From Escherichia phage 348Ecol098PP: DNA of 64,000 nt. A model generated the notes under the pieces. That model saw nothing but the letters and a program-made list of their open reading frames with translations. It did not search any database and had not been told where the DNA came from. Shown here one piece after another: positions 44,777-47,872 of this stretch. Every line of letters begins with the position of its first letter. The stretch's first letter is position 1. The DNA lies in the sequence record OR062947.1, one strand, 5' to 3'. Position numbers and translations under genes: made by a program.

Positions 44777-46461
44777 AATCATTTAAATTAAATCGTGTTC
44801 GTTATCAAAACATCATGTCGGTAGGTGGGAATCCTATTGACATCCAATTAGATAAAGTCCAAAAGACATTAATCACTGGTAAAAATGGTGGTGGTAAATC
44901 TACGATGTTAGAAGCCATTACTTTCGGACTTTTCGGTAAACCATTTCGTGATGTTAAGAAAGGGCAAATCATTAATAGCACGAACAAGAAAGAGCTCTTA
45001 GTTGAGCTTTGGATGGAATTCGATGGTAAAAAATACTTCATTAAACGTGGCCAAAAGCCCAATATTTTCGAAATCTCCGTTGACGGTGTTCGTCTCGATG
45101 AATCTGCCAGCAGTCGTGACTTCCAAGAAGAATTTGAACGTAGCATCGGAATGTCATACGCGTCTTTTAAACAAATCGTTGTGCTTGGGACGGCAGGGTA
45201 TACCCCTTTCATGGCTCTTAGCACCCCTGCTCGTAGAAAACTTGTCGAAGACCTTTTAGAAGTCGGCACACTCGCTGAAATGGATAAAATCAATAAGTCT
45301 CAAGTTCGAGAACTTAATTCCCAGGGACAAGTTCTCGATGCCAAGAAAGATGGTGTTATCCAACAAATTAAGATTTATAACGAGAATATCGAACGTCAAA
45401 AGAAATTATCTGGTGATAATGTAGCGCGTCTACAGAATATGTATGATGACCTAGCCAAAGAAGCTCGTTCATTAAAAGCAGAAATCGAAGAAGCTAATGA
45501 GCGACTACTTAATATCGTTCTTGATGAAGACCCTACTGAGGCATTCAACAAGATCGGACAAGAAGCATTCTTGATTAAATCTAAAATCGACTCATATAAC
45601 AAAGTTATTAAGATGTATCATGACGGTGGCACATGTCCTACTTGTGCGTCACAGTTGCACCAGGGTGACCCTATTGTCTCTAAGATTACCGATAAGCTTC
45701 ATGAATGTAATCACTCATTCGAGCAACTTACATGTCACAGAGATAATCTGAGTGTCCTAGTGGACGAATATAGAGCTAATGTTAAGACTAAACAGGACCT
45801 TGCATCTGATATTCGTACCAAGAAACAAGCAATGATTGCCACTATTGATAAAGCTAAGAAAGTTAAAGCTGCAATAGAACAAGCCTCGGCGGAATTTATC
45901 GACCATGCCGATGAGATAGCTTTGCTTCAAAAAGAACTTGATAAAATCATTAAAACAAAATCAGATATCGTTCTTGAAAAATACCATCGTGGTATTATCA
46001 CAGATATGTTAAAAGATTCTGGTATTAAAGGTGCTATCATTAAAAAATACGTGCCTCTGTTCAACAAGCAGATTAACCATTATCTTAAAATCATGGAAGC
46101 TGATTACGTGTTTTCTATTGACGAAGAATTCAATGAATCTATAAAATCACGTGGCCGCGAAGAGTTCAGTTATGCTTCATTTAGTCAAGGTGAAAAAGCA
46201 CGTATCGATATCGCGTTATTGTTTACATGGCGAGATATTGCTGAAAAGGTCTCTGGTGTTAGAATCAATACATTAATTATGGACGAAGTCATGGATTCCG
46301 CGACTGATTCTGAAGGTATTAAAGCTATTTCAACAATTCTTAACTCTCTAACCGATGCAAACGTGTTTATAATTAGTCACAGAGACCATGACCCACAAGC
46401 TTATGGACAGCATTTGCAAATGAGCAAAGTTGGACGATTTACTGTAATGAAAGCCTCTTAA
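44773..46461 (+). CDS. 46: recombination endonuclease subunit gp46 (Rad50-like ATPase)
   Basis: 562 aa; Walker A GKNGGGKST, zinc hook CPTC, signature and Walker B near C-terminus. Confidence 0.9.
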   Translation: MKSFKLNRVRYQNIMSVGGNPIDIQLDKVQKTLITGKNGGGKSTMLEAITFGLFGKPFRDVKKGQIINSTNKKELLVELWMEFDGKKYFIKRGQKPNIFEISVDGVRLDESASSRDFQEEFERSIGMSYASFKQIVVLGTAGYTPFMALSTPARRKLVEDLLEVGTLAEMDKINKSQVRELNSQGQVLDAKKDGVIQQIKIYNENIERQKKLSGDNVARLQNMYDDLAKEARSLKAEIEEANERLLNIVLDEDPTEAFNKIGQEAFLIKSKIDSYNKVIKMYHDGGTCPTCASQLHQGDPIVSKITDKLHECNHSFEQLTCHRDNLSVLVDEYRANVKTKQDLASDIRTKKQAMIATIDKAKKVKAAIEQASAEFIDHADEIALLQKELDKIIKTKSDIVLEKYHRGIITDMLKDSGIKGAIIKKYVPLFNKQINHYLKIMEADYVFSIDEEFNESIKSRGREEFSYASFSQGEKARIDIALLFTWRDIAEKVSGVRINTLIMDEVMDSATDSEGIKAISTILNSLTDANVFIISHRDHDPQAYGQHLQMSKVGRFTVMKAS

Positions 46462-47174
46462 TGAGGCTTATGTTTACAGTTATCAAAATGCCAACGACGC
46501 ATATTAGCAGGGATCCCTATTTTATCGCAATGAGGACATTTAATTTTCTTGTCCTCTTTTTTCTTTCTGTTAGGATTTGATTTACAGAATTTTATATGCG
46601 GCTTTAACGCCGATAACTTAGTAGTTAAGCCACAAAACGGACAAGAATCTTCTTTCCAAATTTTCGTGGCCATGGTTTTAATTATTTTATCTTTTGTTTC
46701 TTGATCAAGTTTTACTATTTTAGGCGTAGGGCCTTGTTTACAGTTATCAAAATGCCAACGTCTCATGTTTCCTTCAGTGCCGGTTAAACCGCAGTGTGGA
46801 CATGTAATCTTTGGTTTATTTTTTGCCGACTCAGACATTTTCTTACGAGTTTCAGCAGTGAATTCTTTGTTCTTTTGAACTTCTTGATTCTTACGTCGAA
46901 GCCATCCAAATAATTTGTTTTTGCTTCTATCTGCTTTAGGAGATGAGATAGTCATCATACGAGCAGCATATATTAAAGAGGCATTATCTGGATGGATTTT
47001 TACCAACAGTTGATGTGCCAAATAATGTTCTTCCGGTGTTAAGTCTACTAAGTTTAAAGCATCATCACTTCCACCTAAACATTGTGGTATAATGTGATGA
47101 CGTTCTGTATAACCATCTAAACTTCTTGATTTAGCATTGGTGATAAGCTTTTCGTATATTGAGTTATAATTCAT
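46458..47174 (-). CDS. HNH homing endonuclease with three C-terminal Cys-His repeats
   Basis: HNH motif ERHHIIPQCLGGSDDALNLVDLTPEEHYLAH; repeated CPHCG...MRRWHFDNCK; only minus-strand gene in an all-plus region. Confidence 0.75.
   Translation of the reverse strand: MNYNSIYEKLITNAKSRSLDGYTERHHIIPQCLGGSDDALNLVDLTPEEHYLAHQLLVKIHPDNASLIYAARMMTISSPKADRSKNKLFGWLRRKNQEVQKNKEFTAETRKKMSESAKNKPKITCPHCGLTGTEGNMRRWHFDNCKQGPTPKIVKLDQETKDKIIKTMATKIWKEDSCPFCGLTTKLSALKPHIKFCKSNPNRKKKEDKKIKCPHCDKIGIPANMRRWHFDNCKHKPH
46458..47174 (-). mobile_element. free-standing HNH homing endonuclease gene between 46 and 45.2
   Basis: Opposite orientation to neighbours; internal 30-nt direct repeats (46471 and 46737). Confidence 0.6.
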
Positions 47175-47227
47175 TTACTAAATCCTTATTTGATACAGCA
47201 ACAGATAAATTGATAAACCTATTTATA

Positions 47228-47253
47228 TTGCTTTAATCTCGGAGATTTATAAT
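47228..47253 (+). promoter_or_regulatory. candidate MotA-dependent middle promoter
   Basis: MotA-box-like TTGCTTTA, 12-nt spacer, -10 TATAAT. Confidence 0.45.
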
Positions 47254-47443
47254 GGCGGAGTATTCAACTGGCCAACATCTTCTCGTTGTCCCTGAAATTA
47301 AAAAATATGTTTTGACCAATACGTTTTCAGGTGAAGAACATATTGTTACTGAACAAATGCTCAAATCTGCTTTTAAAGATGAGTATAATAAAATAATGTC
47401 TAATCGCAATTCCGCATGGACAGTTACCGACTTCTACGAATAA
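47252..47443 (+). CDS. 45.2: gp45.2-like hypothetical protein
   Basis: 63 aa, position between 46 and rpbA. Confidence 0.55.
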   Translation: MAEYSTGQHLLVVPEIKKYVLTNTFSGEEHIVTEQMLKSAFKDEYNKIMSNRNSAWTVTDFYE

Positions 47444-47455
47444 GAGAGAAATAAT

Positions 47456-47872
47456 ATGTTTACTACTGCTAAAGGTTTCACTGCTGCTGATCTGAAAGTT
47501 ACTTCTATCCGTACTGACGCTAACCCACATAACCATAATCGTGTTCGTAAAGCATGGGTCCTGCATTGTGATGACGCAAGTGCTAAAAAACTCCAATCTT
47601 TGCCACAAGAAACTCGTTTTATGATTTATGGTTTTATTGATAACGATGTATCTGATATGTGGATTCATCTGATGCGTAAGCACTATAAAGATTCTATTGA
47701 AGCCGGCGGAAAAATCGTTCTTGATAAAGATGGTTCTGAGCGTCTGGAAGATTTCTACTGTGTTGATGCCGACGAACAACTAATTGCAGCTGGCGAAATT
47801 GTTGCTTCTAAAATTCCAGAATATATTGAATCACTGCCTGAAGCTATTAAAAAGCAGATGGTTGCTGCATAA
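47456..47872 (+). CDS. rpbA: RNA polymerase-binding protein RpbA
   Basis: 138 aa, immediately upstream of gene 45. Confidence 0.65.
   Translation: MFTTAKGFTAADLKVTSIRTDANPHNHNRVRKAWVLHCDDASAKKLQSLPQETRFMIYGFIDNDVSDMWIHLMRKHYKDSIEAGGKIVLDKDGSERLEDFYCVDADEQLIAAGEIVASKIPEYIESLPEAIKKQMVAA

Follow-up and report, generated by a model that had tools for sequence, protein, structure and literature searches.

What kind of gene runs against all its neighbours in a block of phage replication genes, and how did it come to lie there? The question is raised by Escherichia phage 348Ecol098PP (sequence record OR062947.1), of which a stretch of 64,000 nucleotides, here called the window, was analysed. Between 44.8 and 49.6 kb the window codes for gp46, gp45.2, RpbA, gp45 and gp44 of a T-even phage, and between genes 46 and 45.2 it carries an open reading frame (ORF) on the minus strand, which an earlier note on this DNA had described as an HNH homing endonuclease gene. 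From sequence comparison we conclude that the ORF is very probably a free-standing homing endonuclease gene (HEG) of the T-even ‘Mob’ HNH kind, which forms part of an 806-nt cassette between genes 46 and 45.2. As judged from homology and a structure model, the protein consists of a Mob-type HNH N-domain, a NUMOD3-like helix and three zinc fingers in its C-terminal half, the last two of them homologous to those of I-TevIII.

Results

A cassette replaces the 46/45.2 junction in a minority of close relatives

The ORF and the DNA that carries it are placed as follows.

46458..47174, stop codon included, minus strand: homing endonuclease ORF, 238 amino acids (aa), identified by ORF call, match to PHROG 655, 2590 homologs and codon variants
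46451..47256, no strand: 806-nt cassette, delimited by BLAST break points and by alignment of seven HEG+ and seven HEG− junctions

The window region is 98–98.6% identical to the RB69-like Escherichia phages NHEP10, G2469, F2 and ST0. The ORF had been noted as the only minus-strand gene in its block, and this stands because, in NHEP10 (98.6% identical), all of the other 55 annotated coding sequences over 31 kb around the gene (55/55) lie on the opposite strand. The 4-nt overlap described between the convergent ends of the ORF and gene 46 was also found: the endonuclease stop (TTA on the plus strand, 46458–46460) overlaps the gene 46 stop (TAA, 46459–46461), the two sharing the tetranucleotide TTAA at 46458–46461.

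Homology of the window to relatives without the gene ends at 46450 and restarts at 47257, so that the cassette swaps 806 nt for 67 nt of the HEG-less relatives (RB69 locus L002, 2552–2618). When seven HEG+ genomes were compared with seven HEG− genomes, the boundaries were sharp and identical. Within them lie the last three codons and stop of gene 46 (KAS for TVS), the endonuclease gene, a new spacer and the start of 45.2, in which the ATG is followed by an extra Ala codon (MAEY for MEY). The empty junction, consisting of gene 46, a 54-nt spacer and 45.2, is found in RB69, HX01, JK36, HY126, 308Ecol101PP and two IMG/VR contigs. Among ∼154 phage records at ≥90% identity the site is occupied in 13 (about 8%), while ∼92% are without the gene. 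The earlier note had named comparative genomics of this junction as one way to check its reading, which conservation of the gene in all relatives would have told against; the gene is in fact missing from RB69 and from the majority of its close relatives.

A scan of IMG/VR returned two related loci (L004 and L005), both HEG-less. In these contigs gene 46 has a dense patch of substitutions over its final ∼300 nt (window ∼46160–46400), the rest being ∼98% identical; from the pattern of substitutions, the patch is a local mosaic segment adjoining the empty insertion site.

The same site is used far beyond the close relatives. At least six Straboviridae genera have homologs at the 46/45.2 position; those with 44–68% aa identity include genes of Tequatrovirus FL08 and UFV06, of Dhakavirus IME281, Bp7 and MX01, of Klebsiella phage Roth77, of Slopekvirus phiKp_10 and of Pseudotevenvirus Cronuts. 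Each of these genes runs antisense to its neighbours and convergent with gene 46, and they share one three-finger layout (A-B-A; see below). In IME281 a gap of 5 nt separates the homolog from gene 46, while elsewhere the two overlap by up to 23 nt. In T4 the site is empty. A comparison of T4 with FL08 shows boundaries equivalent to those in Mosigvirus: the left one precedes the gene 46 stop by 14 nt (in Mosigvirus by 11 nt), and the right one lies directly after the 45.2 start codon.

The gene encodes a conserved HNH protein

The protein matches the PHROG 655 family, ‘homing endonuclease’, with E=1e-66 and has 2590 homologs in a large protein database; identical proteins already carry the label ‘homing endonuclease’ in GenBank. 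With the protein that T6 encodes at the mobE position it shares 32% identity from end to end (E=6e-33), and its N-domain is related to that of RB3 MobE (44% identity over 95 aa, E=3e-23). Together with matches to HNH profiles and with the patchy occupancy of the junction, these relationships support the assignment as an HNH homing endonuclease.

The nuclease domain was located from conserved columns, profile matches and a structure model.

47013..47111, minus strand: HNH (beta-beta-alpha-metal) catalytic core, aa 22–54, YTERHHIIPQCLGGSDDALNLVDLTPEEHYLAH

In an alignment of 96 relatives, E24, H26, H27, P30, C32, G35, N41, L45, H50 and H54 are invariant. H27, N41 and H50, which are invariant or nearly so across 96–104 homologs, are the predicted catalytic residues. 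A profile of the 96-relative alignment detected HNH cores in solved structures, namely those of McrA (E=1.3e-3), Cas8-HNH, IscB and a group II intron maturase; the four matches fall on residues 21–50. The HNH core proposed in the earlier note is thus upheld by both conservation and profile comparison. The AlphaFold model of the whole protein is confident (predicted local distance difference test score, pLDDT, of 94) and has strands at 24–27 and 42–45 and a helix at 47–60, each with pLDDT >95, in the beta-beta-alpha topology. With Foldseek, the top matches of the N-domain in the PDB were all HNH domains, at a non-significant E∼0.4. A single-sequence search of PDB sequences gave sub-threshold matches only, of McrA and the group II intron maturase on the HNH core and of a LapB rubredoxin-like tail on finger 1. 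A search of NCBIfam gave nothing useful.

The coding sequence is under constraint. Among the alleles of the window and five relatives (six alleles), variant codons comprise 21 synonymous and three nonsynonymous changes, corresponding to a ratio of nonsynonymous to synonymous substitution rates (dN/dS) of ∼0.03. We give next to no credence to the idea that the frame is a chance antisense ORF without a product. Its antisense position and its failure to match any Pfam family above threshold would suit such an origin, but the number of homologs, the quality of the model and the purifying selection already refute it, and the frame lies in inserted DNA missing from relatives rather than opposite another gene.

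A decaying or inactive relic of a homing endonuclease, kept because its loss would take with it an embedded promoter, the end of gene 46, and the Shine–Dalgarno sequence and start codon of 45.2, is a more substantial alternative, which we nevertheless judge improbable. The cassette does hold a middle-promoter-like element and the 45.2 start, and in T4 embedded promoters favour the retention of such genes (PMC2988022). In addition, one relative, ESCO47 (OM386662; locus L008, 2559–3275), has a substitution, H27Y, at the invariant, predicted catalytic His. Set against this, the window allele has every invariant HNH residue and every zinc ligand intact, and dN/dS is low across alleles. The ESCO47 cassette, moreover, is far closer to the window (98.4% identity) than is its right flank (just 83%; gene 46 is 95.9% identical), which suggests recent transfer. 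This pattern of identities would fit recent lateral acquisition with one-sided co-conversion, and with a right flank merely 83% identical the gene marks a recombination boundary.

Three zinc fingers in an old A-B-A layout

The earlier note had reported three copies of a CPHCG...NMRRWHFDNCK motif, encoded by 30-nt direct repeats at 46471 and 46737. The modules and the DNA repeat are as follows.

46740..46802, minus strand: zinc finger 1 (type A), aa 125–145, CPHCGLTGTEGNMRRWHFDNC, CX2CX12HX3C, ligands C125-C128-H141-C145
46584..46643, minus strand: zinc finger 2 (type B), aa 178–197, CPFCGLTTKLSALKPHIKFC, CX2CX11HX3C, ligands C178-C181-H193-C197
46476..46538, minus strand: zinc finger 3 (type A), aa 213–233, CPHCDKIGIPANMRRWHFDNC, ligands C213-C216-H229-C233
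46471..46547, no strand: DNA direct repeat copy 1, encoding finger 3, with a 26-nt exact core at 46471–46496
46735..46811, no strand: DNA direct repeat copy 2, encoding finger 1, 74% identical to copy 1

There are indeed three Cys-Cys-His-Cys modules, but the NMRRWHFDNCK segment is present in modules 1 and 3 only; module 2, CPFCGLTTKLSALKPHIKFCK, shares with them the metal ligands and their spacing alone. Fingers 1 and 3 are near-identical, with a spacing of X12, and finger 2 is divergent, its X11 being one residue under the CX2C-X12-13-H-X3-C pattern. In the model each of the three modules is a beta-hairpin followed by a helix.

That these are DNA-binding fingers is suggested by their relatives. 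Residues 163–234, comprising fingers 2 and 3 and a K-NPNR linker, can be aligned over 74 aa with the C-terminal part of RB3 I-TevIII (38% identity, E=4e-11), in a register that equates finger 2 with the first I-TevIII finger (C211/C214) and finger 3 with the second (C242/C245); finger 3 also aligns to the single finger of T6 MobE. Of the two CX2CX12-13HX3C fingers of I-TevIII, each holds one zinc and neither is dispensable for DNA binding; the pair lies in the dimerisation region (PMC1865063). This homology supports the Cys-His DNA-binding repeat of the earlier note, and by analogy the window array would bind zinc and DNA.

The word ‘triplicated’ needs qualification. Three fingers are present, but the A-B-A layout is old and common to several genera, and no recent triplication is indicated. 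Finger 1 is kept in every same-site homolog in the six genera; within the family at large, finger 3, whose four ligands are unchanged in 96 homologs, is the only invariant one. The 120 best relatives have one finger in 80 cases, two in 12, three in 26, and five and seven in one case each, and these varying counts identify the array as a variable ‘beads-on-a-string’ arrangement of a known finger type.

The direct repeat is real, although not as first described: it extends over 77 nt at 74% identity, its exact core is 26 nt and its second copy begins at 46735. Recent triplication was considered as its origin and rejected, homologs at 45–68% identity having the same three-finger layout. The longest exact match between the finger 1 and finger 3 copies is 26 nt in the window allele and 8–18 nt in other alleles. 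Because these other alleles share so little exactly, we regard the DNA repeat as a by-product of the protein repeat; the 26-nt exact core may be due to conversion over a short tract or to the use of the same codons.

The allele of Mosigvirus mar005p1 (OZ035759; locus L009, 2559–3275) is chimeric. It agrees with the window protein at 193/238 residues, with hardly any difference in the first ∼155 aa but strong divergence in the finger 2–3 region. This suggests that DNA-binding modules may be exchanged between endonuclease variants.

Between the nuclease core and the fingers lies a further segment with a known counterpart.

46812..46868, minus strand: NUMOD3-like helix, aa 103–121, KEFTAETRKKMSESAKNKP, aligning to the NUMOD3-passing segment of the T6 MobE-position protein

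The model has an extra helix before finger 1 and another before finger 2. The first, at 107–119 within the segment, aligns to the NUMOD3 motif of T6 MobE. The aligned T6 segment passes PF07460 (35.3 bits), and many homologs carry PF07460. We call aa 103–121 NUMOD3-like only, because the window protein stays below the PF07460 threshold that the T6 segment exceeds.

The cassette carries putative promoters of its own

The upstream region of the endonuclease gene holds signals on both strands.

47220..47227, minus strand: T4 late-promoter consensus TATAAATA, a perfect octamer 53 nt 5′ of the endonuclease ATG
47183..47187, minus strand: Shine–Dalgarno sequence AAGGA, 8 nt 5′ of the endonuclease ATG, read from the sequence
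47230..47253, plus strand: MotA-box middle-promoter-like element GCTTTA-N12-TATAAT, inside the cassette, its −10 overlapping the 45.2 ATG (47252)

Homologs in Tequatrovirus, Dhakavirus and Roth77 (57–68% aa identity) are preceded by the same late octamer at a distance of 41–44 nt. In T-even phages the late-gene strand is the opposite of that of the early and middle genes. Since the window gene sits among early and middle genes, its antisense strand is the late-gene strand, and the simplest meaning of antisense placement combined with a late promoter is that the endonuclease is probably expressed late from its own promoter. The earlier note had proposed that transcription from gene 46 into 45.2 may limit expression of the gene that it crosses; such antisense interference by early/middle read-through is a plausible hypothesis. 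No intrinsic terminator was found on either strand in 46200–47600, and the endonuclease 5′ leader showed no RNA structure sequestering the ribosome-binding site above that of shuffled sequences (z=−0.1).

The middle-promoter-like element is one of eight matches to its pattern in the window, against 0.4 expected, and in RB69 and T4 the HEG-less 46–45.2 spacers contain the same MotA-box pattern. It thus seems that rpbA/45 receive from the cassette a substitute for the middle promoter that was displaced. Because the −10 of the element overlaps the 45.2 start codon, its transcripts would probably start inside 45.2 and serve rpbA/45 only. Endonuclease genes of T4 are known to embed promoters that they displace, which favours their retention (PMC2988022).

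Between the late octamer and the Shine–Dalgarno sequence lies a leader block, TATC-N7-8-(G)TATCAAA (47175–47219, minus strand; loci L014–L019), that is kept in six genera; its spacing is longer in the window allele. Autorepression in the style of I-TevI was considered as a role for this region and rejected: between the promoter/leader and the empty-site junction (Mosigvirus and Tequatrovirus) the best similarity was 13/20, against a shuffle mean of 13.5. The same comparison bears on the idea that the gene has been co-opted for a phage function, either exclusion of competitor markers or regulation of the divergent 45.2/rpbA/45 promoter region. Co-option would explain why homologs in at least six genera keep one site and one orientation. 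In its favour, too, a conserved 5′ leader block adjoins the divergent promoters, and T4 intron endonucleases also act as autorepressors (PMC2988022). The chance-level similarity just described, however, gives no sign of such regulation, and the sporadic occurrence of the gene within each genus argues against a needed function, so that we consider co-option highly improbable.

Other endonuclease genes in the same segment

Two close relatives, phage F2 (L001, 1527–2387) and phage FL31 (L003, 2979–3869), possess additional free-standing endonuclease genes at neighbouring sites that the window leaves unoccupied. One of these, an HNH gene and the second from PHROG 655, takes the place of 46.1 between 46.2 and 46; the other, between rpbA and 45, encodes a homing endonuclease of PHROG 7504. 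In the 47–45 segment there appears to be an insertion hot spot for genes of this kind.

Discussion

The data favour a mobile HNH endonuclease gene as the answer to the question posed by this locus. We infer a homing mechanism of modular DNA binding, HNH cleavage and copying by repair, which by analogy with related enzymes would run as follows. In a mixed infection with a gene-less relative, the fingers and helices would contact a long target site at the empty allele’s 46/45.2 junction. The HNH domain would then cut nearby, either by nicking one strand, as is reported for MobE and MobA, or as a dimer cutting both strands, as does I-TevIII. Recombinational repair from the HEG+ genome would copy the cassette into the cut genome. 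The carrier genome would be immune in that the cassette replaces the 67-nt segment. Since the seven HEG+ and seven HEG− Mosigvirus genomes have no fixed single-nucleotide differences in their flanks outside the replaced 67 nt, the target should lie at least partly within the replaced segment or at its junctions, and carrier immunity should reside there as well. The cassette itself would supply what it displaced: the C-terminal codons and stop of gp46, a middle-promoter-like element, and the Shine–Dalgarno sequence and start codon of 45.2.

Several observations weigh against this interpretation. The window protein does not pass the Pfam HNH models, the best being HNH_5 with E=0.069 and 13.5 bits against a cutoff of 27.5, and no match to Pfam NUMOD3 (PF07460) was obtained with the whole protein or with aa 89–125 alone. 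The late-promoter octamer is degenerate in Cronuts and phiKp_10, being kept in four of six genera, and with eight occurrences in the window against seven expected its count is at chance, so that the late-promoter call draws on position and cross-genus conservation only. The Mosigvirus flanks show no extended co-conversion tract linked to the gene. Cleavage, nicking and homing are predicted from homology for the whole 46/45.2 lineage, and the target site is likewise a prediction. On the first of these points, HNH membership holds by transitive homology, because the T6 homolog at the mobE position (which also has Pfam NUMOD3) passes PF01844 with 24.4 bits against 21.4.

The closest known systems are the MobE proteins of T4, T6 and RB3. 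They share with the window protein a homologous HNH N-domain followed by a NUMOD3-type helix, and like the window gene theirs is a free-standing gene of sporadic distribution in a spacer between conserved DNA-metabolism genes. The T6 MobE-position protein also ends, as does the window protein, in a type-A finger, CPHCGKKVNKGNALRWHYDKC. Deletion of the HNH motif of T4 MobE abolishes a strand-specific nick in T2 nrdB and lowers preferential inheritance, and mobE is inherited at high frequency (PMC2790892). The differences lie in the site, which is 46|45.2 here and nrdA|nrdB for mobE, in the number of fingers, which is three here against a single one in T6 MobE, RB3 MobE having none that aligns, and in expression. 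Whereas mobE is promoterless, co-oriented with its neighbours and damped by an internal terminator (PMC2790892), the window gene is antisense, with its own late-promoter consensus and no terminator found in the region searched.

I-TevIII of RB3 resembles the window protein at its other end, through the CX2CX12-13HX3C finger pair with K-NPNR linker that is homologous to fingers 2–3. The catalytic positions nearly match as well (H26, H27, N39 and H48 in I-TevIII; H26, H27, N41 and H50 here), although the I-TevIII nuclease domain belongs to Pfam HNH_3 and gives no significant alignment to the window N-domain. I-TevIII is encoded by an intron, has two fingers and acts as a dimer making a double-strand break. 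In orientation the parallel is segD, a free-standing endonuclease gene that is the only one in T4 to lie antisense to its neighbours (PMC2988022). It encodes a GIY-YIG enzyme and is located among late genes without an identifiable promoter, in contrast to the window gene, which sits among early and middle genes with a late-promoter consensus upstream.

The gene is thus a new member of a well-known kind of homing endonuclease, and its finger type has already been characterised in I-TevIII; the finding does not overturn current understanding. Our search of the literature turned up no publication on an endonuclease inserted between 46 and 45.2. For annotation, its value is that the ORF would be read as a mobile nuclease cassette and as no part of the replication and recombination machinery, and the gene serves as a marker of recombination boundaries between otherwise near-identical phages.

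A further proposal, which we put forward tentatively and regard as rather doubtful, is that the 46|45.2 endonuclease represents not a one-off insertion but a distinct, long-lived Mob lineage that has tracked a single homing site through at least six Straboviridae genera, keeping its A-B-A finger array, its obligatory antisense orientation with a late promoter of its own and a cassette that furnishes new ends and a new middle promoter to the host genes it disrupts. The A-B-A array may, on this proposal, extend the two-finger DNA-binding and dimerisation module of I-TevIII.

The 46|45.2 lineage offers convenient material for three questions. Because it combines a Mob nuclease domain with the dimerising finger pair of I-TevIII, it is suited to asking if HNH enzymes of the Mob type cut one strand or two; it also lends itself to relating the number of CCHC fingers to target length, and to the coexistence of an antisense endonuclease gene, driven by a late promoter, with essential early and middle genes. 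If a long-lived lineage does occupy this site, it would provide a candidate Mob enzyme that makes a dimeric double-strand break instead of a nick, and a clean natural example of a selfish nuclease joining the temporal transcription programme of its phage.

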